A stretch of 64,000 nucleotides of DNA from Thermodesulfobacteriota bacterium (GCA_049513055.1 JBEKWN010000006.1:160-64159); one strand, 5' to 3'. Positions 8,434 through 43,494 are shown, numbered from the stretch's first letter. Notes: generated from the letters alone by a model not told the origin. Made by a program: numbers and translations.

Positions 8434-8477
8434 TTGGATTTCCTACGTCATTTTCCGTTACGGTTGCATAGTAACTG

Positions 8478-9050: not shown

Positions 9051-9251
9051 CTCCCTCCTCCTTTCTGAGAAAGAAAAATTTATAAAGGTTGATCTTAACC
9101 CACCTCACAATGACAAATAAATATTATCCCTTCTCCAGATCCCTTGTCAAAATAAATCCAAATTTTCAGAAGGAGGTGCTTGAAAATGGTTAAGCGACTT
9201 GGTAAAATTTTGTTGAACAAGGAAATATCTTTAGGAAAGGGAGGGTGGCCT

Positions 9252-10880: not shown

Positions 10881-10947
10881 AAGCTAAATTGTCCGGAACG
10901 ATACTTAATCTGACAGAGGGTGCCAAACCACCTTTTGGCTGTTACAC

Positions 10948-22268: not shown

Positions 22269-22946
22269 ATGAGAATTTTATTGGTTGAAGATGACAAAGG
22301 CATCGTTCGATTCGTTAAGAAAGGGCTGTTAGAAAATTCTTTTTCTGTAGATGTGGCCATCAATGGAGAAGAGGGGGTAAACTCTGCCCTTCATATGAAA
22401 TACGATCTGATCGTCCTCGATATCCTGCTTCCGAAAGTGGACGGGAGAGAGGTTTTGAAAAGAATCAGGTCCATGGATATTCAAACCCCTGTGATCTTTT
22501 TGACGGCCAAGGATTCGGAGGGCGACATTGTTAATGGTTTAAATTTAGGGGCAGATGATTACTTAACCAAACCTTTCTCTTTTAATGAATTGCTGGCCAG
22601 GATTCAGGCTATCCTTAGAAGGGGCCAGGCAGTCACCTCCCCTTCAAGATTACAAGTGGCAAACCTCGTTTTAGAGCCCGATGGCCATCGGGTTTTTCGG
22701 GAAAAAACGAAGATCGAACTCACCCCGAAAGAGTATGCCCTTCTCGAATTCTTCATGAGACACCCAGGTCAGATCATCACCCGGACCATGATCTCTGAGA
22801 AGGTCTGGGATTACCACTTCGATACCGTTACGAATATCATTGATGTCCATGTCTCTCATCTTCGGAATAAGATCGACAAGGATTTTGAACCGAAACTTCT
22901 TCATACCGTGAAAGGGGTTGGCTATGTCCTGGAAGATCGGGGGTAA
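22269..22946 (+). CDS. OmpR/PhoB-family response regulator (receiver + winged helix)
   Basis: DLIVLDILLP...D receiver motifs; C-terminal winged-helix region. Confidence 0.9.
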   Translation: MRILLVEDDKGIVRFVKKGLLENSFSVDVAINGEEGVNSALHMKYDLIVLDILLPKVDGREVLKRIRSMDIQTPVIFLTAKDSEGDIVNGLNLGADDYLTKPFSFNELLARIQAILRRGQAVTSPSRLQVANLVLEPDGHRVFREKTKIELTPKEYALLEFFMRHPGQIITRTMISEKVWDYHFDTVTNIIDVHVSHLRNKIDKDFEPKLLHTVKGVGYVLEDRG

Positions 22947-24348
22947 GTTTTACCGAAGGACCGATTTCAAAATGACCCTCTGGTATGTATTTACCTTCTT
23001 AATCTCTGCTCTGATCATCTGTACGTTTCTTTACTTAGGTCTGAGGCATCGACTCCTCAAAGAGATTGACCAATTTCTCCTTGATGAGACGAAAGAAATG
23101 GAGAAGGTTTTATCCCAGGAACCCCAAGAGACAAAATTTTTGATGAGATTCGAAGACGAAATCATGAGGAGAAAGTATTACCCTTTCTTTTTTCAGATCT
23201 TGGACCCAAATGGAAAACCTCTCTACGTTTCAAAAGGCTTTCAGGAAATCGGATATGAACTCAAAGATAGGGTGTTGATCAACGCCGGGAATAGGAAAGA
23301 GACCCTGGAGGAAATTCAATCTTTTGGAGGAAGAATAACATTTCATCTCATCAGCACCCCCGTTTATCGGGAGGGAAAACTCACTGAAATCATTCAACTG
23401 GGGACCCAACTTCATTATGTGATAAAGAACCTATCTCATTTTAGAAATAATATATTGATAGCCCTTCCTATCATATTGATATTAGGGGCACTGGGAGGGT
23501 GGGTACTCGCCAGGAGGTCTCTTTCTCCGATTGGCTATATTGCTGCGAAGGCTCAGAGCATTACCTCTCAAAACCTCAGCGAGAGACTCACTCCAAGAGG
23601 AACAGATGATGAGATGGACGATCTCATCTGGACTATCAATGAAATGATTGCCAGATTAGAGAGTTCTTTTAAGCGAATGGCTGAATTTACCGCAGATGCT
23701 TCTCACGAATTGAAGACTCCCATTTGTGCAATGAGGGGAGAAGCAGAGGTTCTACTTTTGAAAGGAAGAACGGCCGAAGAGTATCAGGAAGGGTTGGTCC
23801 ATTTTGTAGAAGAATTTGATCATCTGAATCAGATGGTCAATAATTTACTTCTCCTTTCTAAATTTGACACCACCCAGGGGGGGGTGAAGATGGCTCCCCT
23901 TCGTTTGGATCTTCTGATTCAGGACCTGTGCAATCTCTTCCAAGTCCTTGCTGAACAGAAAAATATTGCCTTAGAAATAGGTACCATTGAAGAGGTCACA
24001 GTGATAGGGGATAAGGTCCGTCTTCAGCAACTCTTTACCAACCTGATTGACAATGCTATCAAATATACTTCGAAAGGGTCCATTCATGTCACAGTTGAAA
24101 AGAATGAAAGTGCTGCTCTGGTTAAAATAAAAGACACTGGAATTGGCATTCCCAAAGAGGAGCAAGAGAGGATCTTCAGACGTTTTTATCGAGCGGATAA
24201 ATCTCGATCGAGGGAAACGGGTGGGGTGGGGTTGGGACTGAGTATCGCTGAATGGATCGTACATGCCCACCACGGGAGGATCGAGATCGATAGTGAATTA
24301 AATAAAGGTTCCACCTTCACCGTCTATTTGCCCATTCAAAAAGATTGA
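22918..24348 (+). CDS. Sensor histidine kinase (2TM periplasmic sensor, HAMP, HisKA, HATPase_c)
   Basis: H-box ADASHELKTP, N/G1/G2 boxes; overlaps RR gene end. Confidence 0.9.
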   Translation: MAMSWKIGGKFYRRTDFKMTLWYVFTFLISALIICTFLYLGLRHRLLKEIDQFLLDETKEMEKVLSQEPQETKFLMRFEDEIMRRKYYPFFFQILDPNGKPLYVSKGFQEIGYELKDRVLINAGNRKETLEEIQSFGGRITFHLISTPVYREGKLTEIIQLGTQLHYVIKNLSHFRNNILIALPIILILGALGGWVLARRSLSPIGYIAAKAQSITSQNLSERLTPRGTDDEMDDLIWTINEMIARLESSFKRMAEFTADASHELKTPICAMRGEAEVLLLKGRTAEEYQEGLVHFVEEFDHLNQMVNNLLLLSKFDTTQGGVKMAPLRLDLLIQDLCNLFQVLAEQKNIALEIGTIEEVTVIGDKVRLQQLFTNLIDNAIKYTSKGSIHVTVEKNESAALVKIKDTGIGIPKEEQERIFRRFYRADKSRSRETGGVGLGLSIAEWIVHAHHGRIEIDSELNKGSTFTVYLPIQKD

Positions 24349-24392
24349 ATTTCCATTCCTCAGGATTAAGGAATCTTCATCTAAATTTAATC
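24337..24392 (+). promoter_or_regulatory. Double box (aaagattgaatttcc + aggattaaggaatctt + catctaaatttaatc) overlapping the HK stop and preceding the orphan HK
   Basis: Shared motif, see finding. Confidence 0.5.
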
Positions 24393-24529
24393 TCCGTTTA
24401 ATCGTCTTTTCTTAATATTTATACAGGAAAACAAAGGGGTAAAGCCCGCGGTTATAGGGGATTGTAGTCAATATTCATGGCGGACTCCAGCTGCAAGATG
24501 AATATCCACCCGAGTTTTAAGATAAAAAA

Positions 24530-25528
24530 ATGAAAGGCAATTTAGCCCTGGAGGATAGAAGCAGGGCCAGGACATTCAGAGACTTGGTTATCATCTCTGT
24601 AACTGCCGTTTTGGCGTTTGCCATAGCCTATGTTTTTAATCTATTTGAGATGATCGCAGATTTGTCACGGAAACATGTAGGATGGAACATTGATGAATTC
24701 ATTATTGTCCTTGCGATCTTAGCATTCGCTTTTGGGATTTTTTCATTACGGAGGTGGAGGGAATTGAAAGATGAAATTGCTGAGCGCAGGCGGGCGGAGA
24801 AGGAGATCAAAAAGCTGAATGAAGATTTGGAACGCCGGACCATTGAGCTTGAAGCAACCAACAACGAATTGGAAGCATTCAGTTACTCTGTCTCCCATGA
24901 CCTGCGCAACCCGGTGCTGGCCATTGGCGGTTTTTCGCGTCTCTTGTTAGAAAAATACTCAAGCCATCTCGATGAAAAAGGGCATCATTATTTAAATATC
25001 ATACTGTCGAGCACACAAAACATGTGCCAGTTCATTGATGATATTCTTGCTTTCTCTCATTCAGGGCACCGACAAATTGAGTTCTCAGACATTGACATGG
25101 GGGAACTTGCCAAAGCCTTATTTGAGGAACTCAAAGGCATCACCTTAGGACGAATGCTGCGATTGAACCTTAAACCCCTTCCTCCTGCCCGTTGTGATCG
25201 GGCAATGATTCGGGAAGTCCTCATGAATCTGTTGTCCAATGCCATTAAATTTACAAGGGACAAAGAAACTGGTATCATTGAGATGAGTGGGTGGATTGAG
25301 AAAAATCAAAACATCTATTATGTCAAGGATAATGGTGCTGGGTTTGATATGCAGAATGCAGATAAATTATTCGGTGTTTTTCAACGGTTGCACAACACAG
25401 AGGAATTTGAAGGAACGGGTGTAGGGCTCGCCCTTGTCCAGCGCATTATTTATCGACACGGTGGACGAGTGTGGGCTGTAGGGAAAGTCAACGAAGGTGC
25501 CACCTTCTTTTTTTCGCTTCCAAGATGA
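24530..25528 (+). CDS. Orphan membrane sensor histidine kinase (2TM, coiled coil, HisKA, HATPase_c)
   Basis: SHDLRNPV H-box; HATPase motifs; no adjacent RR. Confidence 0.85.
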   Translation: MKGNLALEDRSRARTFRDLVIISVTAVLAFAIAYVFNLFEMIADLSRKHVGWNIDEFIIVLAILAFAFGIFSLRRWRELKDEIAERRRAEKEIKKLNEDLERRTIELEATNNELEAFSYSVSHDLRNPVLAIGGFSRLLLEKYSSHLDEKGHHYLNIILSSTQNMCQFIDDILAFSHSGHRQIEFSDIDMGELAKALFEELKGITLGRMLRLNLKPLPPARCDRAMIREVLMNLLSNAIKFTRDKETGIIEMSGWIEKNQNIYYVKDNGAGFDMQNADKLFGVFQRLHNTEEFEGTGVGLALVQRIIYRHGGRVWAVGKVNEGATFFFSLPR

Positions 25529-25658
25529 GATTAAAATTCGATGAAAGAAATGTATCCGAATTCCTTTTTGTTGAAGACAATCCAGACAAAGTTTAACTTA
25601 CACACATAGAGATAGAGAGATATCGTTTTGCCAAGGAAGTGTTTAAGGACTTAATCCG

Positions 25659-25704
25659 ATTTCTTGCTCCTCAAGATTGAAGAAATTTTCATCTAAATTC
25701 ATCT
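25659..25704 (+). promoter_or_regulatory. Box copy upstream of the GNAT module (cgatttcttgctcctcaagattgaagaaattttcatctaaattcatc)
   Basis: Shared motif. Confidence 0.5.
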
Positions 25705-25725
25705 CATTAAACCCCTGTCTTATTA

Positions 25726-26856
25726 ATGGAAATGGTCGAGGTGACATACAAAATTTTAGATTCGGTTAGTAAAATCAATAGGAATGATTGGGATTCCGTA
25801 TTCGGAAGTATTCCCGAAGGATATGAGTTTTACCATACGCTTGAAAAGTCAGACCTTAAAGAATTCTCTTTTTACTACTTACTCCTTTATCGAGACGGGA
25901 ATATTCTTTCCATTGCGCCCCTCTTTGTTACTGATTTTTATTTGGATATTGTTTTGGAAGGATTTATTAAAAATGTCATCGGTTTTATCCGTCATTTTGT
26001 ACCCAAATTTTTTATTTTAAAGACGTTATTTTGCGGTTCCCCTTTCAGTGAAAATGGTGTTTTGGGTATCACGAAAGACGTTGGGGATGCCCGTATTCTT
26101 ATTGACGAAATCGTTCAAGTCATGCAAAGATTTAGCAGAGGGAATAAGGTCCCCTTCATTATTTTTAAGGATTTCTTAAGAGAAGATACTTCCCTTTTAG
26201 ATTCCCTTAGACACAAGGGATTTCTTAAGGTTGACAGCTTTCCCTTAGTCAGGATGGAATTGAATTTTAATTCCTTAGAAGAGTATTTTGGAAGTTTAAG
26301 CACTTCCACAAGAAAGGATTTGCGTCGTAAGATAAAAAAAGCTTACTCCAAGGATAAAATCAAAATAAGAGTTGTGGATGACATCGAAGATATCATCGAC
26401 GATGTCTATCCCCTCTATTTAAACACCTATCACGCCGGCGAGGTAAAATTTGAGTTTTTAACCAAAGATTTTTTTATCAATGTCTCAAAAAATTTAAAAC
26501 CGCACACCAAATATTTTCTTTATTATGTGGAAGATCAACTCGCTGCCTTTAACCTCTGCTTTGTATATGATCATTTACTGATCGATAAATTCATCGGTTT
26601 TGATTATGAGATCGCCCATCAATATTCTTTGTATTTCGTCAGTTGGTGTTTTAATATTGAGTGGTGCCTGAAAAATTCGATACGCTACTACCAAGTGGGG
26701 CAAACGGATTATGAACCAAAGTTAAAATTAGGCGGAAGTCTCGTCCCCTTATTCGCCTATTTCAAACACAAAAATTTATTTTTTAATTTAATTATAAAAT
26801 TACTTGCGATATGGCTACTCAAACCAAATTCTTCCATCAGGAATGCAGAAAATTAG
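25726..26856 (+). CDS. FemAB-like / GNAT-fold acyltransferase (PF04339/PF13480-like)
   Basis: 376 aa; N-terminal region resembles FemAB_like proteins; family assignment from memory, moderate. Confidence 0.45.
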   Translation: MEMVEVTYKILDSVSKINRNDWDSVFGSIPEGYEFYHTLEKSDLKEFSFYYLLLYRDGNILSIAPLFVTDFYLDIVLEGFIKNVIGFIRHFVPKFFILKTLFCGSPFSENGVLGITKDVGDARILIDEIVQVMQRFSRGNKVPFIIFKDFLREDTSLLDSLRHKGFLKVDSFPLVRMELNFNSLEEYFGSLSTSTRKDLRRKIKKAYSKDKIKIRVVDDIEDIIDDVYPLYLNTYHAGEVKFEFLTKDFFINVSKNLKPHTKYFLYYVEDQLAAFNLCFVYDHLLIDKFIGFDYEIAHQYSLYFVSWCFNIEWCLKNSIRYYQVGQTDYEPKLKLGGSLVPLFAYFKHKNLFFNLIIKLLAIWLLKPNSSIRNAEN

Positions 26857-27273
26857 ATGCCGAAGCGTAAATTGACCCTAAAAATATTTTTATTTCTTAT
26901 TCTTTCTGATGTGTTAGAGACGTTTCACCAATTTTGTTTTAAGAAAAGCGCTTTATTTGAGGAGGATCCTCCACTCACCGGTTTTTATGACCTTCTCCTA
27001 TTTTTCAAAGTAGTCTTTTCTTCTCCGTTTTTCTGGATTGGTCTCCTCTCCTTAATCATCATGTTTATCATCTGGTCAAGCATCCTTTCAAAAATAGATT
27101 TAAGTATGGCCGTTCCCATCGCCAGTTTCAGCTATATCCTTGTTGCTTTGGTTTCCATCCTTTTTCTCCATGAGACGATCACCCTCCTCAGGTGGATGGG
27201 AATATTTTTAATATTGACCGGCGTGATATTCGTCTCCGTGAGCAGCCGTGTTAAAGAGAGCACTTTGACATGA
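26857..27273 (+). CDS. Small 4-TM DMT/EamA-like half-transporter (ArnE/ArnF-like)
   Basis: 138 aa, four hydrophobic helices; paired with a second similar gene overlapping by 4 nt. Confidence 0.55.
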   Translation: MPKRKLTLKIFLFLILSDVLETFHQFCFKKSALFEEDPPLTGFYDLLLFFKVVFSSPFFWIGLLSLIIMFIIWSSILSKIDLSMAVPIASFSYILVALVSILFLHETITLLRWMGIFLILTGVIFVSVSSRVKESTLT

Positions 27274-27653
27274 AAGAAGGCCAGCTTTTTATTCTAAGTT
27301 TAATTGTATTTACAAGCCTCTGTGACACGTTCAGGGAGCTCTTCTTGAAATCAGGGGTGAATGTTTTAAATCAATTCAATCCCGGGAATATCAAAGAAGT
27401 GATCCTTTTTATTTTGAAATTAATCAGGACTCCGAGGGTGTGGATCAGTTTGCTTTTTGGTTTTCTTTCTTTATTTATTTGGCTCTTTATTTTATCAAAA
27501 GTCGATTTAAATTTTGCTTTCTCCTTAGACAGTATGCACTATATCTTTATTGCCTTGGCCTCTCAGTTCCTATTAAAGGAAAAAGTGAGATTGACGCGCT
27601 GGGTGGGTACCCTCTTCATCGTATTGGGAATCACCTTGGTCACCCTGAGTTAA
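27270..27653 (+). CDS. Small 4-TM DMT/EamA-like half-transporter (ArnE/ArnF-like), partner of previous
   Basis: 127 aa, four TM helices, same architecture. Confidence 0.55.
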   Translation: MKEGQLFILSLIVFTSLCDTFRELFLKSGVNVLNQFNPGNIKEVILFILKLIRTPRVWISLLFGFLSLFIWLFILSKVDLNFAFSLDSMHYIFIALASQFLLKEKVRLTRWVGTLFIVLGITLVTLS

Positions 27654-27664
27654 TTGAACCTTCC

Positions 27665-28906
27665 ATGAGCCTATTCAGAGAAATTCCCCCCACGGCTGGT
27701 TTCCCCCTCTATTGGAAAGATATTTTGTCCGTCTTTAAGGTAAAAGATCCCGAAGACGTTTTGGAGAAGGATTTCAAAAATTACCTTAACGTTGAATATG
27801 CAAAGGTAACATGTTCGGGGACAGTCGCTTTATACCTTATCCTTGAGACCTTGAAAGAATTATCCCCTCGTAAAACGGTCATTATCCCTTCTTTTATATG
27901 CCCTCTCGTTCCCTTGGCCATTCAAAGAGCAGGATTAACTGTAGAGATATGCGACATCAACAAGGGTGATTTTAATTTTAACTTTGAAGCATTAGAGGAA
28001 TTATGCTTAAAAAACCCAGATATCTTAGCAATCGTTCCCGTACACCTGGGAGGGATCCCACTCGATTTTGATCCCATTAAAAATATTTCCAATCCATACG
28101 GGATATTTGTTATTGAGGATTGTGCCCAATCCTTAGGGGCAACTTATCAAGAGAAGAAGGTGGGGACGCTGGGAGATTTTTCTTTTTTCAGCCTCTGTCG
28201 TGGCAAAGGATTAACCCTCTATGAAGGAGGAGTGGTGGTAACCCATCGGAAAGATTACGGCGCTGTGTTGGGAAAAAAGATAGATCAGTTCGTCAAGGAT
28301 GATTTTATTTTGGAAAGCCTGAGAGTCCTCGAATTATTTGGATACTGGCTTTTATACCGCCCCTCTTTTTTCTGGTTTGTTTTCAGCCTCCCCCAAATTT
28401 TCTGGAATCTACAGGGCAAGAAATTCAAAGCCTTCATGGAAGACCTCACCATTGATTTTCCTATTCATCAAGTATCCAAGATGAGAAGATTAATAGGACA
28501 TGTCCATTTCCATCACTTAGAGGAAGAGATAGAGAAACAAAGCCAAAAGGCATCTTATTATATAGAAGGGCTTAAAAACATCGAAGGGGTTCAAGTCATC
28601 AAGGCCCCTGAATATGGCAGGGGAAACTATCCTTATTTAACTTTAATTTTTGATACCCCCGAGAAACGGGAGATGGCTTTAAAACAATTTGAAAATTCTG
28701 GCTTGGGGGTCTCCCAGATTTATGTCTGTGCCATTACGGATTATGACTATCTCAAACCCATCCTCCCTGATCGGCCCTGTCCGAACGCCCGTTATCTGGC
28801 AGAGAGGGAAATCACTTTATCTACCAGTACTTTTTTGAAGGAGGTAGATTTAGATTCGATTTTAAATATATTAGGAGATTTATTAGGAGCTGGCCGGAGG
28901 CGATGA
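27665..28906 (+). CDS. DegT/DnrJ/EryC1/StrS-family PLP aminotransferase (ArnB-like)
   Basis: CSGTVALYL, ...IEDCAQSLGATYQ..., FSFFSLCRGKGL motifs; start ATG 27665 just after the upstream gene stop. Confidence 0.85.
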   Translation: MSLFREIPPTAGFPLYWKDILSVFKVKDPEDVLEKDFKNYLNVEYAKVTCSGTVALYLILETLKELSPRKTVIIPSFICPLVPLAIQRAGLTVEICDINKGDFNFNFEALEELCLKNPDILAIVPVHLGGIPLDFDPIKNISNPYGIFVIEDCAQSLGATYQEKKVGTLGDFSFFSLCRGKGLTLYEGGVVVTHRKDYGAVLGKKIDQFVKDDFILESLRVLELFGYWLLYRPSFFWFVFSLPQIFWNLQGKKFKAFMEDLTIDFPIHQVSKMRRLIGHVHFHHLEEEIEKQSQKASYYIEGLKNIEGVQVIKAPEYGRGNYPYLTLIFDTPEKREMALKQFENSGLGVSQIYVCAITDYDYLKPILPDRPCPNARYLAEREITLSTSTFLKEVDLDSILNILGDLLGAGRRR

Positions 28907-29830
28907 GTGGAGAAGTTCTAAGATGCTGAGATTTGTCCTTTCGTTTATTTCGTTTACCAAAGCATCGGATAGATATTTTGTCTTCAGGTCCTCGGGATGG
29001 TCCAAATACGAAATAAATTTCTTGAGCTTCCCCTTCACTGAAATCTCTGAATAATCTCCGACGATATCCAACCCGATAAGATCCACATGGCCCATGATCA
29101 GTTTTAGCATCCAAAGCAATTCTTTTAAAGAAAGCATTCCTTCTTCCCAATTCGTTAAGGCGTATTCGTTTCTTAAACAATCTTTATCGATGGAGAGGTA
29201 AACCCTTGGGGTGGGGAGACGTTTCAGGATGGAGAATAAATGGTTCATCATGTCTTTCCCCTTCAACTCATTCCAGCTAATCTTATTTACGAATAGGCCC
29301 TTCTTCATTTTGATAGAGAAATTCTCTGGGATCCTTTTGAAAAAGGTAAATGAGGGACGGTGTGAATAAGGATAGATCTCTACCCTATTTCTTTTCAAGG
29401 ATTTCATATTTCCAGTCTGAATCCAGGGACTCGATAGATCCTTGGAAGAAGTCCCTATGAGAATAAACTTCAAAATATTCTTGTTTCTTAAACTCTCGGC
29501 CACCCAAGAACCGCAACCCAGACGGGGGGGCAAGATGTCCCAGTCCGGATGAAAATCGAAAAGGATGACGCAAATCGGTTCGGCAAACTGATTGATTAAA
29601 ATATGGCTCACCTGATGAAAATCACCAGAGCCTAAGAAAGTGACGGAGTTCTTAGCCGAACCGTCGATTCGTTTTTCGATTTCTTTCTTTGTCTTTTTAT
29701 CCAACCAGATTCTTGCCCTGGGTCCAAGATCTTTTAGGTCTATGATTTCGGTTTGATATCGGGAGATGAGGTTTTGTTGTTTGATCAGGCTGTCATCGAA
29801 ATTTAATATGCGAATGGATTTACTTAACAT
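28883..29830 (-). CDS. Arginase/agmatinase-fold protein with degenerate metal-binding motifs
   Basis: LGSGDFHQVSH (cf GGDHS), DFHPD (cf DAHAD), SIDKDCL (cf SxDxDxxDP). Confidence 0.4.
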   Translation of the reverse strand: MLSKSIRILNFDDSLIKQQNLISRYQTEIIDLKDLGPRARIWLDKKTKKEIEKRIDGSAKNSVTFLGSGDFHQVSHILINQFAEPICVILFDFHPDWDILPPRLGCGSWVAESLRNKNILKFILIGTSSKDLSSPWIQTGNMKSLKRNRVEIYPYSHRPSFTFFKRIPENFSIKMKKGLFVNKISWNELKGKDMMNHLFSILKRLPTPRVYLSIDKDCLRNEYALTNWEEGMLSLKELLWMLKLIMGHVDLIGLDIVGDYSEISVKGKLKKFISYLDHPEDLKTKYLSDALVNEINERTNLSILELLHSSPPASS

Positions 29831-29835
29831 AAGAC

Positions 29836-30201
29836 TTATCGATGAGGCGTTTCGTCCTTGGAGGTGGAAGGAATGAAATCCTTTTCAGGAGGAGACTTCT
29901 CAGATGAAGCGGGAGCCTCTTTTGGCGCTGAGGTTTCAGGTGTTCCAGGGCTGTCTGTCATGGAATTGGAAACCGACACGGCCAAATCAGCCAAGAGATT
30001 CTCCCGGGGGAGAGTGCTTTTTATCTCTTGCAAATCCTTCGTTTCAGCCTCAAAACTTCCCTTCATTTCTTCGGTCGATTTTTTGAACTCCTTGATCGCC
30101 TTACCGAGAGCCTTACTAAGCTCTGGAAGTTTTTGCGGCCCAAAGACAATTAAAGCAATGACCAAGATGACCAGCAATTCCGGCAACCCAATATCGAACA
30201 T
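29836..30201 (-). CDS. TatA/TatB-family Sec-independent translocase subunit (longer, TatB-like)
   Basis: N-terminal [28 protein letters not shown] + amphipathic helix. Confidence 0.8.
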
Positions 30202-30275
30202 AAATCCTCCTTTTGATTAAATCCCGAAGGATACTATTTCTCGATGATCAATGGCGTAAAATAGTCTTCGAATTT

Positions 30276-30473
30276 TTATTTTTTCCCTTCAGAAATTTCT
30301 TCGGTATTTTTGGGATCGATACCCATTTTCCCCTTTTCTTTGATGTTCTTCTTGAAGTTCTGAATTCCTTTTCCAAGCCCTTCACCGATCTGGGGAAGTT
30401 TATTGGCACCAAAAATGATCAAGACGATAACCAAAATGACAAGTAGCTCTGGCATTCCTATTCCGCCAAACAT
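30276..30473 (-). CDS. tatA: TatA
   Basis: 65 aa; [30 protein letters not shown]. Confidence 0.85.
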
Positions 30474-30545
30474 ATTTTCCTCCTTTAAAAATATTAAAAA
30501 CCGCCACCTCTCCCGCTTGGGATGGGATAGGATTTTCAGAATATG

Positions 30546-31217
30546 TTACCGGTCACGATAGGTATCTGCAAAGGTTCTATCGGGACGATGGCGTTGCCGT
30601 AAAAATTCCATCACACCGGGTAAAATTGAAATAACAATAATCAGGTAGATAATCAGAGTGAAGTGTTTTTTGACAAAGAGAAGATTACCGAAATAAAAAC
30701 CCCCGAAAACAAAAGCGGCAATCCAGGCAATCCCTCCTGAAATGTTATAAGTAATAAAATGTCTGTAAGTCATCTTCCCAATCCCAGCCACAAAGGGGGC
30801 AAAGGTACGGATGATGGGAATGAATCTTGCTATGATAATAGTTTTCCCTCCATACTTCTCGTAGAACCGATGGGTACGGTCCAGATACTCCCTGTTCAGG
30901 AAACGGACTTTTTCCTTATGAAAAACCTTCGGTCCCACAAAGTATCCTATCCAGTAATTCACTGTATCTCCTGCTACTGCCGCAACGCTGAGAATGGCGA
31001 ATAACCATCCGGCTTTCAGCGAGCCGCTGGCCGCAAAGGTACCTGTAGCAAAAAGGAGAGAATCACCCGGAAGGATGGGAGTCACTACCAGACCTGTTTC
31101 ACAAAAGATGATGAGAAAAAGCAATAGATATGTCCAAACACCATAATTTTGAATGACCCAATTAAGATGCTCACCCAGGTGAATAAAAAGGTCGGTGAAT
31201 CTTGTAAACAGTTCCAT
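30546..31217 (-). CDS. DedA family membrane protein
   Basis: [15 protein letters not shown] motif, multi-TM. Confidence 0.85.
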
Positions 31218-31255
31218 AGATTCTTAATGCGGATTCATTCTGTTTATGGGTAAAC

Positions 31256-32056
31256 CTAAGGGGAAGGGAATATCTGATCCCTAAAAAATTTTATCGTTTC
31301 TTCGGCCACCCGGTCCTTCTGGTTATCGATCGTCATCATGTGATAACTGTCATCCAGAATAATCTTTCGAACGATCTGGGAACCAATTTTCTTTTCGACA
31401 AAATCCGGGTTCTTGGTGCTAGTCAGATCATCTTCTCTGGAGTGGAGGATCAAGGCTGGAGTCGTGATAGCAGGGAGTTCTTTCTTCACCTCTCTGATCA
31501 ACTTGAACAGTTCGTGCATACTCGCAGCCGGAGTCTTTGTATAGGCAATCGAGTCATTTTTCATAAGATTGACAATCCGTTCCCTCAGTGGTTTGTTCTT
31601 TATTCCATATGGCTCTGTCTCCGAATACGAATAAATATATCTAAATGGAATGTAATAGGCGACGGGTAGCAGAAATTTAAACCAGGGGAGGCTCCAGCCA
31701 TCATAAAAAAGAGTCGTCGAAATCAGAGATAAGGCCGCCACTTCTGAACCAAACTCATAGGAGAGGTGAAGGGAGAGAAGGGCCCCCATACAAAGGCCCA
31801 CGACAGATACCGTATCAAAAGATTTCTTCATCTCTATAAAGCTTTTATGGACTGACCGGTACCAATCTTCCCAGTTGGTTTTAGAAAGATTCTTAAGGGT
31901 TGTACAGTGCCCCTCCAGGCAGGGGCCTTTGACGGTGAACCCGGCTTTGTTTAATTTTCTGGCAAGGTATTTCATCTCGAAAGGACTCCCCGTCAGACCA
32001 TGAATGAGCAGCACTGAATGATTTCCGCCAGAGAGGTCTATCTTGTGATCGGACAT
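31256..32056 (-). CDS. Alpha/beta hydrolase (lysophospholipase-like) with Cys in the nucleophile elbow (GLCMG)
   Basis: LLIHGLTGSP oxyanion region; VVGLCMGALLS elbow. Confidence 0.7.
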   Translation of the reverse strand: MSDHKIDLSGGNHSVLLIHGLTGSPFEMKYLARKLNKAGFTVKGPCLEGHCTTLKNLSKTNWEDWYRSVHKSFIEMKKSFDTVSVVGLCMGALLSLHLSYEFGSEVAALSLISTTLFYDGWSLPWFKFLLPVAYYIPFRYIYSYSETEPYGIKNKPLRERIVNLMKNDSIAYTKTPAASMHELFKLIREVKKELPAITTPALILHSREDDLTSTKNPDFVEKKIGSQIVRKIILDDSYHMMTIDNQKDRVAEETIKFFRDQIFPSP

Positions 32057-32066
32057 TTTAAGTTTC

Positions 32067-33437
32067 CTATGCTTTCTTACACTTGCTTATCAGTTGGTCA
32101 AAGAGTTCGACGGCCATCTCCATTTCCCCTCGGGTGATGTGAAGGGAGGGGGCAAGCGTAAATACATTCTTATAATATCCTCCTATGTCAAGAACAAGTC
32201 CATATTTCGATCCCTTATGGCTCAACGTTCCTTTCAACCCTTCAAGAAACATTTTCTCTGCCAATTCCCTGTCAGGGGTAAAACTGTCTGATTTGCAGAT
32301 TTCCACCCTGAAGGCAAGGCCAAGGCCATCCACATCTCCTATCTCCCGGTGTTTCTTCTTGAGATCTTGAAGTAATGAGAGAAAATAAGTTCCGCTTTCT
32401 GAAACTTTCTTTTCATAATCTTCCTCATCAAGCATCGCCATCACCTCAAGGGCAATCCTTGTGCCGAGAGGATTTGATGAAAAAGTCGAATGGGTTGAAC
32501 CAGGAGGGAAGACTGAAGGACTGATCAGAGCTTCTCTGGCCCAGATTCCTGATAAAGGGTTTAGGCCATTGGTGAGTGCCTTTCCAAAAACGATGATATC
32601 TGGACTGACCTCAAAATTCTCGATCGCCCAGAGTTTTCCTGCTCGACAGATCCCCATCTGAATTTCATCATCCACAAACAAGATTCCCCAGTCGTCGAGG
32701 ACTTTCTTAAATCTCTTAAAATAACCCTTGGGCGGCACGATATAGCCTCCTGTCGCCTGGATGGGCTCTACGAAAAAAGCGGCATACTCGGACTCTTTCA
32801 CCTTGGTATCGATGATGGAGTAATACTCTGTCTCAAAAAGCTTTTCAAACTGGGAAATGCAGTAGAAATCGCAATCCTCCCGCTTCTTCCCATAATAACA
32901 ACGAAAGCAGTAGGGATATGGAATAAATTGGGCTCGATCTGAAAAATGGCCATACCTTCTCCTGTAGCGATAACTGGAAGTGATCGCAGAGGCCCCCAGC
33001 GTCCGTCCATGATAGCTCCCCATAAAGGCAAACATCAGATTCTTTCCCTTGGCGTTTCGGACGAGTTTTAGGGCGTCTTCAATGGCCTGGGCGCCGCCAA
33101 CGTTAAAAAGTATTCTGCCCTTTTCTTTGAACCTCCTCATATTCGCAAGACAGATTTTTTCTGCAAGAAGGACCTTCTCCTCATGAAGGTATTGGCAGGC
33201 GAGTTGGGGGAGGGTGTCTATCTGAGTCTTGAATACCTCGCCCAGTCTCGGGTTTTTATATCCAAAACTTGCAGCGGAATACCACATCTGGAGATCAAGA
33301 TAGGGAATATTCAAGCTGTCATAAAGGAAGCTTCCTTCGCATCCTCTGAAGATTTTTGGAGGCTCTGCATAATGGACTGTATCTCCATAGGAACAGTAGA
33401 TCGAATCTTTCTTGATCAGTTCCTCGTCTTTAACCAT
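32067..33437 (-). CDS. Class III (omega) aminotransferase
   Basis: LFVDDEIQMG...FGKALTNG PLP-lysine motif; 456 aa. Confidence 0.85.
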   Translation of the reverse strand: MVKDEELIKKDSIYCSYGDTVHYAEPPKIFRGCEGSFLYDSLNIPYLDLQMWYSAASFGYKNPRLGEVFKTQIDTLPQLACQYLHEEKVLLAEKICLANMRRFKEKGRILFNVGGAQAIEDALKLVRNAKGKNLMFAFMGSYHGRTLGASAITSSYRYRRRYGHFSDRAQFIPYPYCFRCYYGKKREDCDFYCISQFEKLFETEYYSIIDTKVKESEYAAFFVEPIQATGGYIVPPKGYFKRFKKVLDDWGILFVDDEIQMGICRAGKLWAIENFEVSPDIIVFGKALTNGLNPLSGIWAREALISPSVFPPGSTHSTFSSNPLGTRIALEVMAMLDEEDYEKKVSESGTYFLSLLQDLKKKHREIGDVDGLGLAFRVEICKSDSFTPDRELAEKMFLEGLKGTLSHKGSKYGLVLDIGGYYKNVFTLAPSLHITRGEMEMAVELFDQLISKCKKA

Positions 33438-34137
33438 TCCGGGTTCCCCTTAGGCCATGATGGATGAAAGCTCTTTGGGATACAAAACGCTCTTGCCCTA
33501 TTTGATTCCTCAACCATGCAATGATGTCTCCAAATTCCCTGTGCTCACCATGGGGAATTTTTTCAACCCGGCAAAAATCTAAGAGGTCTGATTTGGCGAA
33601 GGTCAAGTCCGCTTTGCCTGCGATGCAAAAATCAGAGCGACCATCGCCTACAAGAATGTTGGTTCCCTCTGGACTGGAAAGTTCTTCCATAATCTTACAC
33701 TTGCAGATGCCGCTTCTGCTCAAACAATCCTCCTGGAAATAGGGGAAGTACATCTCATAGCTCCCGTTTGTAGACCCCAAACTGTTTGAGAACACCCTGA
33801 TATCGTTCAATCCATATCGTTTCAGTATGGATTTTATGAACAGGTCGATCCCATCGCTGAGGATAATGATTTCAAAGGCTTTGCTTCTACAGTACCTTGC
33901 GAAATCGATAAAGGTTTCGTCAATTTCGATCCCTTCCACAAAATCGAGAAGATCACATTCTTTCGCTTTGATGAGCCTGGTCTGCATGGCCAGGCAGTCG
34001 CGGGAACCCATCTCTCCTCTAACCCAGGATTGCTCTATCTCCATCCACGTGGGGTCGGCAAATTCTTCTAAAATCCTGTCGATCACATCCTCCTTCGTGA
34101 TCGTTCCATCAAAGTCACAGAAGAACATATATTTCAT
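33430..34137 (-). CDS. HAD-IB phosphatase (phosphoserine phosphatase / MtnX-like)
   Basis: FFCDFDGTIT motif I; translationally coupled to flanking genes. Confidence 0.7.
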   Translation of the reverse strand: MKYMFFCDFDGTITKEDVIDRILEEFADPTWMEIEQSWVRGEMGSRDCLAMQTRLIKAKECDLLDFVEGIEIDETFIDFARYCRSKAFEIIILSDGIDLFIKSILKRYGLNDIRVFSNSLGSTNGSYEMYFPYFQEDCLSRSGICKCKIMEELSSPEGTNILVGDGRSDFCIAGKADLTFAKSDLLDFCRVEKIPHGEHREFGDIIAWLRNQIGQERFVSQRAFIHHGLRGTRNG

Positions 34138-34138
34138 A

Positions 34139-35377
34139 CTACCCCTCCGTCTTCCTGGCGATGAGAACTGCATTGGTCCCGCCGAAAGCAAACGAATTTG
34201 ACATCACCGTATTCACCTTCACCCCTTTACGACCAATGTTTGGGACATAGTCGAGGTCGCACTCCGGGTCAGGCTGATCAAGATTGGTCGTAGGGGGAAT
34301 GGCTTGATTTTTTATTGCAAGCAGTGAAACAACAAATTCAATGGCCCCGGCCGCTCCGATCGTATGGCCATGCATCGATTTCGTAGAACTCACAGGAACT
34401 TTGTATGCATAATCGCCGAATACCTTCTTGATCGCCTGTGTCTCCAAAAGATCATTCCACTGAGTTGCAGTCCCATGAGCATTGATGTAGTCTATATCTT
34501 CAGAAGAGATCCCGGCCTCTCTGATCGCTTCTGATATGGCTTGTGCCTGTCTTTCAAAAGAGGGTTTGGTCATATGAAAGGCATCGGAGGTAGAGCCATA
34601 GCCAAGGATCTCGGCGTAGAGTGGCGCTCCATGACGGACAGCCCTTTCCATCTCCTCAAGCACTACTACGGCGGCTCCCTCACCCAGCACTAATCCGGAA
34701 CGGTTTTTTGAAAATGGCTTGCAAGACTTCGATGGGTCATCAGGGTCTTCCATAGCCAGGACCCTGAGGGCCTCCCAACTTCGGAAAACCCCATAGGTCA
34801 AAAAGGCCTCGGTCCCTCCTGCGAGCATCACGTCCGCATATCCATCTCTGATCTGTCGAAAGGCCTCACCAATCGCGTTTGAGGACGAAGCACAAGCGGT
34901 GGATACAGTCAAACACGGCCCCGTAAGTCCATACTCTATGGAAAGATAAGAAGCAGAAGCGTTACTCATGATCATCAAGACAGATAATGGTTTCACCCTA
35001 TCTGCGTTTTCCTTAAACAAGCGTACGTACCCATCCTCTATGGCATTCGCACCACCTAACCCTGTCCCCATATATACTCCCGACCGTTCCTTTTCTTTCG
35101 CATCGAGAGATAGCTTTGCATCCTTCCAGGCTTGCGAAGCAGCGGCTAAAGCGAATTGGTTGACGCGGTCCAAGCTGGACACCTGTTTCTTGTTGAAATA
35201 ATCGAAAGGATTAAAATCGACTTCGGCTGCAACTTTTACCGAAAGAAGGTTTGAAAATTCCGAAGAGATTCTTCTGACTCCAGACTTGCCAGCCATGATA
35301 TTGGCTGAAAAATCATTGATATTATTCCCACAAGAGGAAATAACGCCCAGTCCGGTAACCGCGACTCTCCTTCTCAT
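34139..35377 (-). CDS. fabF: Beta-ketoacyl-ACP synthase II-like (KAS)
   Basis: Active-site Cys (TVSTACASS) and His motifs (HGTAT, HGHTIGAAG). Confidence 0.85.
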   Translation of the reverse strand: MRRRVAVTGLGVISSCGNNINDFSANIMAGKSGVRRISSEFSNLLSVKVAAEVDFNPFDYFNKKQVSSLDRVNQFALAAASQAWKDAKLSLDAKEKERSGVYMGTGLGGANAIEDGYVRLFKENADRVKPLSVLMIMSNASASYLSIEYGLTGPCLTVSTACASSSNAIGEAFRQIRDGYADVMLAGGTEAFLTYGVFRSWEALRVLAMEDPDDPSKSCKPFSKNRSGLVLGEGAAVVVLEEMERAVRHGAPLYAEILGYGSTSDAFHMTKPSFERQAQAISEAIREAGISSEDIDYINAHGTATQWNDLLETQAIKKVFGDYAYKVPVSSTKSMHGHTIGAAGAIEFVVSLLAIKNQAIPPTTNLDQPDPECDLDYVPNIGRKGVKVNTVMSNSFAFGGTNAVLIARKTEG

Positions 35378-35414
35378 TTAAATAGAATCCCCACATTCGT
35401 CTCCATGCTCAGCT

Positions 35415-35681
35415 TCAAGTGCTCATCGCTAGATTTGGAGAACTTAACAACTGTTCAGATACGAATCGGTCAATCGCATCAACCATATCTTGTATCGTTG
35501 TCACTTTAAACTCTTGGTCAGGAATTTTTATCCTAAACTCGTTTTCGATATCGAACATGAATTCAATCTTATCGAGAGAATCGAGACCCAAATATTCGAG
35601 CGTTGTTTCAGGTTTAAGTTCTTCAACATTAAAATCAAACTTATCGATAAAAAGTTTTTTAAGTCTCTCTATTGTAGACAT
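35415..35681 (-). CDS. Acyl carrier protein
   Basis: LGLDSLDKIEF phosphopantetheine-attachment motif; 88 aa. Confidence 0.8.
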   Translation of the reverse strand: MSTIERLKKLFIDKFDFNVEELKPETTLEYLGLDSLDKIEFMFDIENEFRIKIPDQEFKVTTIQDMVDAIDRFVSEQLLSSPNLAMST

Positions 35682-35762
35682 CCCTACCTCCTTTTTGGTA
35701 AAAAGATAATTCTTGGCCCTTTCTGCTATGATAAAATTTGAATATTAAAATATCGTTAAAAC

Positions 35763-35784
35763 AAGATTAATTTCCCTTAATCTT
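35763..35784. promoter_or_regulatory. Perfect inverted repeat AAGATTAA-N6-TTAATCTT in the divergent promoter region
   Basis: Direct reading; shares the AAGATTAA half-site with the boxes. Confidence 0.5.
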
Positions 35785-36000
35785 ACTATTATATAGTATA
35801 GAAAAAGGTAAGACAAGAACCCTCACTTAGATTTTGATTGCCTTTTATTTAGCAACGGTAGGTTCTTTTTTTTGGCAGATAATGGATACCACATAAAAAA
35901 TATCACCTTAATTCTAAAAAAGCAAGAAAATTCAATGAAACAACATATTCTCGTTACTGAGGAAATCTAATTTTTATAATTTTGACCTCAATTTCTTCTC

Positions 36001-36044
36001 CAAGATTAAGAAATCTTAATGGAAACTTCATCTATGTTTAATCA
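36001..36044 (+). promoter_or_regulatory. Box copy upstream of GT-C paralog 1 (caagattaagaaatcttaatgg ... cttcatctatgtttaatc)
   Basis: Shared motif; contains IR ATTAAGA-AA-TCTTAAT. Confidence 0.55.
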
Positions 36045-36164
36045 TTTTTTGTGTTATATTAAGAAACTAAAAGTTTATATACTTTTGAAGTGTTCATTTC
36101 GACGGATTGATAAGCTTTTTATATCTTGTTATATAAGTATCGATTTAGAAGGGACTTTAGGTTG

Positions 36165-37766
36165 ATGGATGTGAGGAGAAAATATATCTTTGGGTTACTC
36201 GCCATAGGGATGGTTCTCTTCTTTTTCAATTTGGGAGGAAGGGATCTCTGGGAACCCGATGAAACCCGGTATGCCGTGGTGGCCCGCGAGATGGTGCAAA
36301 GCGGGGATTGGATTTTACCTCATTTCAACAGGGAGATTTATGCAGAAAAACCTCCTCTCTTTTTCTGGTTGGTCAATCTCTCCACTTTCTTTCTAGGAGA
36401 AAACAACGAGTTGTCCAATCGCCTTCCTTCTGCCCTGGCAGGGTTGATGACCCTTTTCATCACATTTCTTTTTGGAGAGAGACTCTTTAATCTCAGAGTC
36501 GGATTCCTTTCCGCTTTGGTGCTGGGGACATGTATTTTGTTTCCCCAATTATCGCGTTGGATGATGCTCGATTCATTGTTTACCCTTTTTTTACTCTTGA
36601 GCCTTTTTTATTTTTATCTTGGTTACGAGAAAGAGGGGAGTCGCCGGAAATATTACTATCTCGCCAGCCTCTTTATGGGGCTGGGGGTTTTAACGAAAGG
36701 GCCTATTGGTTATCTTCCTCTTCCCATCCTCCTCCTCTTTGCCTTTTTTCAAAAAGACGTTAAGAAATTTTGGAATCGCGATTTGCTATGGGGATGTCTC
36801 CTCTCCTTGATTCTTGTATTGATCTGGTGGTTACCTGCTTGTTGGATTGGGGGAAAAGAATATATCTATTGGCTCTTGTTTAAGCAAGCCGTTGGAACTT
36901 ATGTAGAGGGGGGAAGACATTTTCATCCTGAGTCATTCTATTTCTACTTTGTCCGTTTCCCGATAGAATTTTTTCCGTGGATCGTTTTTTTGCCCACCGC
37001 ATTTGTTTTAGGGTTACGAAGGGACTTTCGCAAAAGAAAAGAATTCGTATTTCTCTCCATCTGGTTCTTTTTCATTTTCCTTTTCTTTACCCTCTCCAAA
37101 GGGAAGAAGGATAATTACCTTTTACCCCTTTACCCAGCTGCCGCCATGATGGTCGGGAGTCTATGGGATTTTGGGGTTCAGTCAGGGGAGGGGAAGAAAG
37201 GATTCCTATCTGGACTTCTTCTTTTAACCTTTCTGTTTCTCGCCGGCCTGGTTCTGTTCCTATCAAAAATGCCACAACAGTCCTATCCAGACATGACGGC
37301 CTATTCTTCTTTAGGGCTTTCCATTCTCTCTTATATCCTGCTTGGGTCCTTTTTCTCTCTGTTGTTTTTTATTAAGAAAAAGAAACAGGCCTCGTTCATC
37401 AGCCTTATGATCGCTTTCGCTCTTTTCCATCTTCATCTCTCCTATTCTCTTCCGCCAAAACTCAATCCCCAGAGGTCAGCCAAGGCATTTTCAGAGAAAG
37501 TTCTAAAGAGAATGGAGATGGGGGATGAACTTAAAACTTATTCCCTTAAGTCTAATGGATTGCTTTTCTATACCCAGAAACCCTATATAGAGAGTATTCA
37601 AAGCAAAGATCGCTTTTTTGAAATTCTCAACTCCTCCCAACGAGTTTTTGTTGTGTTTTATCCGGAAGTCCTTAATCAACTTCAGAAAGAAACAGGAGTT
37701 GAGTTCACTCCTCTTGAACAGGTGAAGGTAGGCCATTGGAAATATGTTCTCATTTCAAATCATTAA
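36165..37766 (+). CDS. GT-C glycosyltransferase, ArnT/PMT_2-like, paralog 1 (full length with C-terminal periplasmic domain)
   Basis: DETRYAVVAREM...AEKPPLFFW signature; 12+ TM; ORF could start at 36126. Confidence 0.8.
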   Translation: MDVRRKYIFGLLAIGMVLFFFNLGGRDLWEPDETRYAVVAREMVQSGDWILPHFNREIYAEKPPLFFWLVNLSTFFLGENNELSNRLPSALAGLMTLFITFLFGERLFNLRVGFLSALVLGTCILFPQLSRWMMLDSLFTLFLLLSLFYFYLGYEKEGSRRKYYYLASLFMGLGVLTKGPIGYLPLPILLLFAFFQKDVKKFWNRDLLWGCLLSLILVLIWWLPACWIGGKEYIYWLLFKQAVGTYVEGGRHFHPESFYFYFVRFPIEFFPWIVFLPTAFVLGLRRDFRKRKEFVFLSIWFFFIFLFFTLSKGKKDNYLLPLYPAAAMMVGSLWDFGVQSGEGKKGFLSGLLLLTFLFLAGLVLFLSKMPQQSYPDMTAYSSLGLSILSYILLGSFFSLLFFIKKKKQASFISLMIAFALFHLHLSYSLPPKLNPQRSAKAFSEKVLKRMEMGDELKTYSLKSNGLLFYTQKPYIESIQSKDRFFEILNSSQRVFVVFYPEVLNQLQKETGVEFTPLEQVKVGHWKYVLISNH

Positions 37767-39655: not shown

Positions 39656-39676
39656 CATTCAGGGAAAGGAGTTAAA

Positions 39677-40792: not shown

Positions 40793-40813
40793 GATCAGAA
40801 GGGAGATCGTCTT

Positions 40814-41539: not shown

Positions 41540-41540
41540 A

Positions 41541-41897: not shown

Positions 41898-41927
41898 AAA
41901 GGAAGATGTTGCGCAGGCTGGAATGGG

Positions 41928-43406: not shown

Positions 43407-43494
43407 AGGGAGAATCCTTTCAGGCAAGCTGCGAATCTCGGTAAAAGCTTCTGGAATTATTTGCGTTTTAGGCGATAAAAGGAGGATTTTCAGG

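Follow-up and report, generated by a model that had tools for sequence, protein, structure and literature searches.

Which envelope modification, if any, is encoded by four adjacent plus-strand genes in a Thermodesulfobacteriota bacterium? The genes occupy positions 25726 to 28906 of a 64,000-nucleotide (nt) stretch of DNA (hereafter the window) and encode a Fem-like tandem-GNAT transferase, two small EamA-family membrane proteins and a DegT-family pyridoxal 5′-phosphate (PLP) enzyme. The first-pass annotation had likened them to the flippase and aminotransferase end of arn operons with an added acyltransferase, a view that our analysis bears out only in part. Here we report that they are half of a conserved, uncharacterised eight-gene set that spans at least four phyla and comprises seven genes plus, in some lineages, the DegT gene. 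The theme of the set is known and its machinery is not; our literature searches found no published description of it. We tentatively read the set as a two-component-regulated module that would make a cationic, amine-bearing membrane lipid and flip it to the outer leaflet, in a functional parallel to MprF. The four genes are as follows.

25726–26856, plus strand: Fem-like tandem-GNAT transferase (376 residues; FemAB_like and Acetyltransf_6)
26857–27273, plus strand: EamA/SMR-like half-transporter with four transmembrane segments, subunit 1 (138 residues; EamA)
27270–27653, plus strand: EamA/SMR-like half-transporter with four transmembrane segments, subunit 2 (127 residues; EamA)
27665–28906, plus strand: divergent DegT-family PLP enzyme (413 residues; DegT_DnrJ_EryC1)

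All four open reading frames (ORFs) are present at these coordinates with Pfam scores above the gathering cut-offs, and the Pfam and NCBIfam profiles agree with the earlier typing of the products as GNAT/FemAB, ArnE/F-nearest and DegT proteins. The junctions look operon-like: the stop codon of the transferase gene abuts the start of the subunit 1 gene (26856/26857), the two subunit genes overlap by 4 nt (ATGA) at 27270, and an 11-nt gap separates the subunit 2 gene from the DegT gene. The DegT ORF ends at 28906, and its likely start is the ATG at 27665, the position at which its homologues begin.

A gene set recurring in at least four phyla

We scanned one genome per species and obtained 52 loci with a relative of the Fem-like protein, all from metagenome-assembled genomes (MAGs) labelled Omnitrophota, Thermodesulfobacteriota/'Deltaproteobacteria', Planctomycetota or Chlamydiota. 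The nearest locus, from a Thermodesulfobacteriota MAG (L001), is 69–89% identical to the window in protein sequence over the neighbourhood. Eight genes recur, encoding a HAD-IB phosphatase, a class-III PLP enzyme, an arginase-like protein, an alpha/beta hydrolase, the DegT enzyme, the Fem-like transferase and the two EamA proteins. In the window, the four partners of the plus-strand genes lie convergently on the minus strand:

28883–29830, minus strand: divergent arginase-fold metallohydrolase (315 residues; Pfam Arginase, 26.4 bits, cut-off 22)
31256–32056, minus strand: monoacylglycerol-lipase-like alpha/beta hydrolase, the esterase (266 residues; Hydrolase_4)
32067–33437, minus strand: class-III PLP enzyme (456 residues; Aminotran_3, 232 bits)
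33430–34191, minus strand: MtnX-like HAD-IB phosphatase (TIGR01489, 120 bits, cut-off 81.55)

For the synteny counts we took 20 loci that extend 6 kb or more to either side and whose Fem-like protein reaches 45% identity or more. The DegT gene is present in 19/20 of these loci and both EamA genes in 17/20, which is far beyond chance. The HAD phosphatase gene is likewise present in 17/20 loci, the arginase-like and alpha/beta hydrolase genes in 16/20 each and the class-III gene in 15/20. The esterase gene is the tightest partner of the Fem-like gene in all subgroups, including a distant Omnitrophota one.

A tblastn search of the PLSDB plasmids with the Fem-like protein returned 51 records at ~30% identity over nearly the full length, including Rhizobium, Roseomonas, Agrobacterium, Bartonella, Aureimonas, Azospirillum and Nostoc. 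The operons of Agrobacterium larrymoorei, A. fabrum and Rhizobium sp. NZLR1 share the order response regulator, histidine kinase, HAD-IB phosphatase, class-III enzyme, arginase-family protein, EamA, (desaturase), alpha/beta hydrolase, GNAT, EamA and (cyclopropane-fatty-acyl-phospholipid synthase, CMAS), with a convergent MipA/OmpV gene. The bracketed desaturase and CMAS genes (Pfam FA_desaturase, 96 bits; CMAS, 304 bits) occur in the A. fabrum and Rhizobium operons only, not in that of A. larrymoorei. The A. fabrum set adjoins genes for a phosphoethanolamine–lipid A transferase (EptA) and a diacylglycerol kinase (DgkA). Roseomonas mucosa AD2 carries the set with the DegT gene and both small transporter genes, with an undecaprenyl-diphosphate phosphatase gene and a two-component system of the sigma-54 type as neighbours, and Aureimonas has a similar set. 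Orthology is confirmed by tblastn for the class-III enzyme (59–63% identity in Agrobacterium, Rhizobium and Bartonella), the HAD phosphatase (37–41%), the alpha/beta hydrolase (34–41%), the arginase-like protein (E 1e-41 to 1e-49) and the Roseomonas DegT enzyme (36% over residues 3–404). The DegT gene is absent from the Agrobacterium, Rhizobium and Aureimonas versions of the set. Because it is missing in several lineages and smaller cores exist, we regard it as a lineage-dependent addition and not as part of the core.

A Bartonella sp. HY038 plasmid carries a trio of class-III, Fem-like and arginase-like genes beside MBOAT and AlgX-like SGNH genes (6489–12504 of locus L062). On a Nostoc sp. 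C052 plasmid (L063, 5166–15924), the class-III and Fem-like genes stand in a lipid/glycolipid-export cluster that also encodes a desaturase, an SRPBCC protein, an acyl-CoA dehydrogenase, a glycosyltransferase and DevBCA. A gene for a 497–502-residue protein of the flavin amine-oxidase family adjoins the esterase gene in two Omnitrophota subgroups (L039, 7407–8900; L045, 7557–9065); this gene occurs in some Omnitrophota only and not in the window. In one Omnitrophota subgroup, the Fem-like, esterase and flavin oxidase genes lie inside a fatty-acid synthesis operon with plsX, β-ketoacyl synthase (KAS) and acyl carrier protein (ACP) genes.

The partner enzymes are typed to different depths. The arginase-fold protein has the H, DxHxD and DxD metal-ligand motifs of ureohydrolases, with D70, H72, D92, H94, D96, D215 and D217 invariant in 28 orthologues, and its profile matches a plant arginase (E 3.4e-5). 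The nearest PDB relative of the esterase is a thermostable monoacylglycerol lipase (120 bits), and Est30-type esterases also match; in the window and in the relative contig L053 only (2/33 orthologues), its nucleophile motif reads GLCMG and not GLSxG, with cysteine in place of serine. The class-III PLP enzyme is nearest in the PDB to an alanine/serine racemase (213 bits; archaeal amino-acid racemases) and to GABA-AT-like enzymes, which suggests that it is either aminotransferase-like or racemase-like. The HAD phosphatase matches MtnX in the PDB (2fea, 88 bits) and conserves the DxDxT and GDGxSD motifs, and its true start is probably an internal ATG near 34137. FabF and ACP genes adjoin the set in the window; this FabF (493.3 bits, cut-off 493.75) is probably a housekeeping protein and is not counted in the set. 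In the window and L053 only, two TatA/B-family genes and a DedA gene (29836–31217, minus strand) are inserted between the arginase-like and esterase genes:

30546–31217, minus strand: DedA-family membrane protein (VTT_dom; NCBIfam DedA, 256 bits, cut-off 236; weak UptA matches)

In two loci a complete arn-like operon lies directly beside the set (L053, 1288–9417; L013, 342–6138). It encodes ArnB, a split GT2 glycosyltransferase, a formyltransferase, an epimerase/dehydratase and a NodB deacetylase, with PEMT-like methyltransferase gene(s) adjoining, and the L053 region also holds a PMT_2 gene and its own EamA gene of 120 codons. Since the arn operons of L053 and L001 each have such an EamA gene of their own, the pair of the window type is a paralogue of it.

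The transferase, the transporter pair and the DegT enzyme

The Fem-like protein matches the Pfam families FemAB_like (PF04339; 47.5 bits, cut-off 27) and Acetyltransf_6 (PF13480; 40 bits, cut-off 22), and its relatives carry generic database names ('predicted N-acyltransferase', 'GNAT family N-acetyltransferase'). Sequence and profile searches of the PDB found no solved relative of this protein, so its fold kinship is seen only through a predicted structure. Foldseek searches with an AlphaFold (AF2) model (predicted local distance difference test score, pLDDT, 89.7; predicted template-modelling score, pTM, 0.86) returned as top matches FemX, the aminoacyl-tRNA-dependent synthases Sbb17/Sba18, FemA and the synthase domains of MprF and other aminoacyl-phosphatidylglycerol synthases (aaPGS), with values of E 2.7e-12 and template-modelling (TM) scores of 0.56/0.62 for FemX of Weissella (7z6a) and TM scores of 0.55/0.69 for Sbb17. 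Acyl-CoA tandem GNATs, namely a clavulanate-pathway enzyme and VipF, were also among the matches. With FemX and Sbb17/Sba18 at the top, aminoacyl transfer, which the first-pass annotation had offered in parentheses, is plausible, and the modelled fold suggests aminoacyl-tRNA as the most likely donor, ahead of acyl-ACP or acyl-CoA. An invariant lysine, K332, lies within a Y-x-P-K-x-K-x-G-G motif and may be the counterpart of the Fem catalytic lysine.

Both small membrane proteins belong to Pfam EamA (subunit 1, 36 bits; subunit 2, 32.8 bits; cut-off 28.2). Their best NCBIfam models are ArnF and ArnE (37.5 and 34 bits for subunit 1, 40.8 and 33.5 bits for subunit 2), which supports the label ArnE/F-like in the sense of nearest named relative; as an equivalog assignment the label fails, because scores of 34–41 bits fall short of the cut-offs of 92 (ArnE) and 99 (ArnF). 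Models for small multidrug resistance (SMR) proteins are weak on the pair (EbrB, 18 bits; BcrC, 15.7 bits). Profiles built from 33 orthologues of subunit 1 and 31 of subunit 2 gave 42 and 40 bits, respectively, with Escherichia coli ArnE, 34 and 25 bits with ArnF, and 16 and 6.5 bits with EmrE, so that the pair is nearer to ArnE/ArnF than to classical SMR proteins.

The first transmembrane segment (TM1) sets the pair apart. E21 of subunit 1 (in LET) and D19 of subunit 2 (in CDT), which at least 90% of the respective orthologues share, align with the column of EmrE E14, in which E. coli ArnE has serine, ArnF has alanine and neither has a carboxylate; the EamA paralogue embedded in the arn operon of L053 has alanine there. 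Each alphaproteobacterial pair has E or D in one subunit, and its second subunit shows D, E or N. A carboxylate is thus found in at least one subunit in all six aligned pairs (the window, the consensus of the 31–33 MAG orthologues and four alphaproteobacterial pairs). In SMR proteins that flip lipids, the central TM1 glutamate is usually replaced by an uncharged residue, and these proteins are possibly not proton-coupled (PMC9574504). The present pair, with its conserved E21 and D19, does not fit that pattern. Its closest profiles are nevertheless those of ArnE/ArnF, and set against the SMR review this combination makes the pair look like a distinct ArnE/F-like subtype that keeps the SMR central carboxylate and would bind a cation or a proton. 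The pair resembles SMR heterodimers (EbrAB, MdtIJ) and Gdx/EmrE in its paired subunits of ~110–140 residues with four transmembrane segments and in the carboxylate at the E14 position; unlike them, it has marginal similarity to EmrE, belongs to Pfam EamA and stands in a lipid/envelope context, not one of drugs or guanidine.

The DegT enzyme scores 162.5 bits with Pfam DegT_DnrJ_EryC1 (cut-off 19.8). The earlier term ArnB-like holds at the level of the DegT family and not below it: the NCBIfam ArnB model (PRK11658) gives 82 bits against a cut-off of 631, PseC (116 bits, the best) and LegC (107 bits) score higher, and identity to E. coli ArnB is 23%. The best PDB match is a perosamine synthetase, with QdtB and 2-deoxy-scyllo-inosose aminotransferases among the others. 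By these profile and sequence comparisons, ArnB is not a nearer relative of the enzyme than PseC, LegC or perosamine synthase. Its PLP lysine (in SLCRGKG) is conserved and aligns with the lysine of ArnB, and it forms a subfamily of its own, marked by the N-terminal motif REIPPTAG and by two insertions that are absent from ArnB. We considered an aromatic insertion as a membrane anchor and set the idea aside, as the insertion is kept in the Omnitrophota and Thermodesulfobacteriota loci and not in Roseomonas.

A regulatory box shared with ArnT-like genes

Two-component genes precede the operon, and copies of a shared box lie in front of the operon and of other genes of the window:

22269–22946, plus strand: OmpR-type response regulator (Pfam)
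22918–24348, plus strand: HAMP histidine kinase (Pfam)
24352–24409, plus strand: box copy A (nhmmer 24356–24404, E 6.4e-11), upstream of the second histidine kinase gene
24530–25528, plus strand: second histidine kinase (HisKA, HATPase_c)
25664–25720, plus strand: box copy B (nhmmer 25668–25707, E 4.7e-4), directly upstream of the Fem-like gene
35992–36049, plus strand: box copy C (nhmmer 35996–36043, E 5e-5), upstream of the first ArnT-like gene
36126–37766, plus strand: ArnT-like GT-C glycosyltransferase (PMT_2, PMT; NCBIfam ArnT, 188 bits, cut-off 567)
12857–12916, minus strand: box copy D, weaker (nhmmer 12909–12862, E 0.0016), upstream of the second ArnT-like gene
10948–12600, minus strand: second ArnT-like GT-C glycosyltransferase (PMT_2; NCBIfam ArnT, 123 bits)

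The nhmmer model was trained solely on three copies from L053, which lie upstream of its Fem-like operon, of a PEMT-PEMT-PMT_2 operon and of a GFO_IDH gene. This model finds exactly four matches in the window, all of them intergenic, and among them recovers the site that had been placed at 25659–25704; the box is therefore real. Copy D, a site in neither training set, is also found with another model (E 0.0036). A core of 14–15 nt, CAAGATT(G)AAGAAAT, occurs twice in the window (25672 and 36001; expected 0.00). The presence of the box upstream of the operon and of two ArnT-like genes, the first of which encodes a protein 28% identical to E. coli ArnT (E 7e-33), supports the proposed co-regulation with GT-C enzymes.

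The box contains direct repeats, TT(C/A)ATCT, spaced 10–11 bp apart, which in copy B read TTCATCT-N3-TTCATCT. Such a spacing is typical of OmpR/PhoB-type regulators, and we infer that the box is bound by the adjacent OmpR-type regulator. A two-component system also adjoins the set in three further MAG loci (L001, L006 and L012) and in the Agrobacterium, Rhizobium, Aureimonas and Roseomonas operons. The box in the window ends ~20 nt before the ATG of the Fem-like gene, with no Shine–Dalgarno sequence and with TATTAA(T) directly before the ATG (25704–25735), whereas in L053 it lies 157 nt upstream and is followed by TATAAT and a ribosome-binding site; in the window, the transcript may thus be leaderless or nearly so. 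A scan with the sigma-70 consensus found no promoter before the operon, and shuffled sequence gave more sites; an Rfam scan of 24300–36200 found no riboswitch or other RNA family.

The window contains five PMT/ArnT-like paralogues, namely the two listed above, one at 50354–52006 and two in a second, separate module of the polyprenyl-phosphate-sugar type (38678–45153). The other genes of this module encode a GFO_IDH_MocA oxidoreductase, a canonical DegT protein (393 bits), a GT2 protein of 241 residues and, at 41517–41897, a 126-residue protein with the Lipid A Biosynthesis N-terminal domain (LAB_N). Further along, at 48726–50348, a 540-residue protein with two matches to Kdo/WaaP-type lipopolysaccharide kinases is encoded in a glycosyltransferase cluster, beside GT4 and radical SAM genes.

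What the set may make

Our preferred reading, to which we give a probability of about 0.4, is that the set makes a cationic membrane lipid and flips it outwards under two-component control. Synthesis would take place at the cytoplasmic face. The class-III PLP enzyme, the HAD-IB phosphatase and the arginase-fold hydrolase, joined in this lineage by the DegT enzyme, would provide an amine head group or alter it, for instance by trimming an arginyl to an ornithyl group with release of urea. The Fem-like tandem GNAT would join the head group to a lipid by an amide or ester bond, and the cytoplasmic esterase would remove or edit the modification, like the hydrolases paired with aaPGS enzymes. The two ArnE/F-like proteins would form a heterodimer that flips the lipid, with their TM1 carboxylates binding the cationic head group or coupling transport to protons. 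Through the shared box, the OmpR-type regulator would switch on both the operon and the two ArnT-like genes.

A lipid-aminoacylation design is favoured because it is the best match for a Fem/aaPGS-fold transferase that comes with a hydrolase of its own and a flippase-like pair, under two-component control within a surface-charge regulon. That the substrate would be a lipid is suggested by the acyl-lipid context, formed by the desaturase and CMAS genes, the plsX/KAS/ACP operon, the adjacent FabF and ACP genes and the monoacylglycerol-lipase-like esterase, and an envelope-charge regulon is suggested by the box copies at ArnT-like genes and by EptA/DgkA, arn operons and DedA as neighbours. Known aaPGS enzymes are typically encoded with a dedicated hydrolase and under two-component systems (PMC6103681). 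The set resembles MprF/aaPGS systems with their hydrolases (AhyD, VirJ/AcvB, PesT) in having a tandem-GNAT transferase of the Fem/aaPGS fold class, a hydrolase encoded alongside, a flipping component and two-component control in a surface-charge regulon. It differs from them in that the transferase, a soluble and unfused protein, belongs to PF04339/PF13480 in place of DUF2156, flipping would fall to a separate SMR/EamA heterodimer and not to the MprF membrane domain, and the esterase is cytoplasmic and monoacylglycerol-lipase-like; the HAD-IB, class-III PLP, arginase-fold and DegT enzymes have no counterpart there. Fem-type transferases that act on acceptors other than peptidoglycan (Sbb17/Sba18; the GNATs AlpF/AlpO of the argolaphos cluster) share the fold class and the Pfam clan, and themselves transfer an amino acid onto the amine of a small-molecule or sugar acceptor. 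They belong to antibiotic biosynthetic clusters, whereas the window gene belongs to a regulated envelope set with a flippase-like pair.

Several points weigh against the cationic-lipid reading. The Fem-like protein has no transmembrane segment and does not match the Pfam aaPGS/DUF2156 family. DegT enzymes normally act on nucleoside-diphosphate keto-sugars or inososes, so a sugar intermediate fits this enzyme better than a glycerolipid. The lipid product, its donor and acceptor, the order of the steps and the flipping are putative, and what we propose for the HAD phosphatase, the class-III PLP enzyme and the arginase-fold enzyme is guesswork. The desaturase and CMAS genes might share a stress regulon with the set and yet act on another molecule. 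A linked aminoacyl-tRNA synthetase paralogue was sought and rejected, as a GluRS-like gene lies near only one locus (L054). Central carboxylates, moreover, also characterise the SMR proteins that export small soluble cations (PMC9574504).

The model put forward with the first-pass annotation, which we consider possible though doubtful, is that an amino sugar is made by the DegT enzyme, receives an N-acyl or aminoacyl group from the Fem-like enzyme, is carried on polyprenyl phosphate and flipped by the EamA pair, as by ArnE/ArnF, and is passed by the co-regulated ArnT-like GT-C enzymes to lipid A or another envelope acceptor. The likeness to arn operons (pmrHFIJKLM; ArnB, ArnC, ArnA, ArnD, ArnT, ArnE/ArnF) comprises a DegT-family aminotransferase, two adjacent proteins of ~110–140 residues with four transmembrane segments, whose nearest named relatives are ArnE/ArnF, and an association with DedA; the box joins the operon to two ArnT-like genes and, in L053, to the PEMT-PEMT-PMT_2 operon, and canonical arn-like operons adjoin the set in L053 and L013. 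Carrier-lipid recycling genes are also neighbours (DedA in the window and L053, undecaprenyl-diphosphate phosphatase in Roseomonas), and Sbb17/Sba18, which aminoacylate an amino-sugar compound, are among the top fold matches. The content of the set is harder to accommodate. It holds no homologue of ArnA, ArnC or ArnD, and thus no ArnC-type GT2 to load polyprenyl phosphate, no ArnA-type oxidase or formyltransferase and no sugar oxidase or dehydratase as a source of the keto-sugar; the window as a whole contains no ArnA or ArnD homologue, and in ~30 Omnitrophota loci no homologue of the ArnT-like GT-C or ArnC-like GT2 enzymes was detected within 10 kb. The versions of the set in Agrobacterium, Rhizobium and Aureimonas do without DegT, the neighbouring arn operons are separate and have their own small EamA gene, bona fide ArnE/ArnF lack the central carboxylates and, as noted above, the NCBIfam scores are far below the equivalog cut-offs. 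The arn analogy also leaves the HAD-IB phosphatase, the class-III PLP enzyme, the arginase-fold hydrolase and the esterase unexplained. The analogy is partly right: it catches the theme, in which an envelope modification that adds amines is regulated together with ArnT-like enzymes and served by a small flippase-like pair, and it misses the content.

A pathway to an N-acyl aminolipid resembling ornithine lipid, in which the Fem-like GNAT N-acylates a PLP-derived amine or amino acid with acyl-ACP or acyl-CoA and the EamA pair flips a phosphate-free aminolipid, draws on much of the same acyl-lipid context. FabF and ACP genes are adjacent, one subgroup is embedded in a fab/plsX operon, desaturase and CMAS genes occur in the Rhizobium and A. 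fabrum operons, the Nostoc cluster combines the Fem-like gene with desaturase, AT3, SRPBCC, acyl-CoA dehydrogenase, glycosyltransferase and DevBCA genes, and the acyl-CoA tandem GNATs are among the fold matches. The arginase-fold enzyme could then convert N-acyl-arginine to N-acyl-ornithine, and the alpha/beta hydrolase could add or remove a second acyl chain. We judge this pathway unlikely, as the best fold matches are all aminoacyl-tRNA-dependent enzymes, Pfam gives FemAB_like and not an OlsB-type family, and the set lacks an LPLAT-type O-acyltransferase. Less probable still is a scheme without any lipid, in which the heterodimer exports a soluble cationic metabolite (a polyamine-, guanidino- or amino-compound) by proton antiport, as do MdtIJ and Gdx. 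The TM1 carboxylate is typical of proton-coupled SMR cation exporters (PMC9574504), guanidino compounds are substrates of arginase-fold enzymes, and class-III PLP enzymes commonly use diamines and omega-amino acids; against this, ArnE/ArnF are much nearer relatives of the pair than EmrE is, Rfam finds no upstream riboswitch, and the context is consistently that of lipid and envelope, from the esterase, desaturase, CMAS and fab operon to the ArnT-like genes, EptA/DgkA and DedA.

Within the cationic-lipid reading, a more specific version, which we hold to be quite improbable as it stands, is that the free-standing Fem-like enzyme moves arginine or another amino acid from tRNA to a membrane or carrier lipid, the arginase-fold enzyme edits arginyl to ornithyl groups, and the carboxylate-bearing heterodimer flips the product. 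If this version were true, the set would be a widespread, unrecognised lipid-aminoacylation system and a second, independently evolved solution to the task of MprF.

The carboxylate-bearing transporter subtype is relevant to the question of how proteins of the SMR type deal with lipids as opposed to soluble cationic substrates. As the set is found on plasmids and chromids of culturable Agrobacterium, Rhizobium and Roseomonas mucosa, it is directly testable by genetics and lipidomics. Changes of envelope charge by 4-amino-4-deoxy-L-arabinose, phosphoethanolamine or lysyl-phosphatidylglycerol are the chief means by which bacteria withstand cationic antimicrobial peptides and polymyxins, and the set sits in such charge regulons, by ArnT-like genes and arn operons in Thermodesulfobacteriota and by EptA/DgkA in Agrobacterium.

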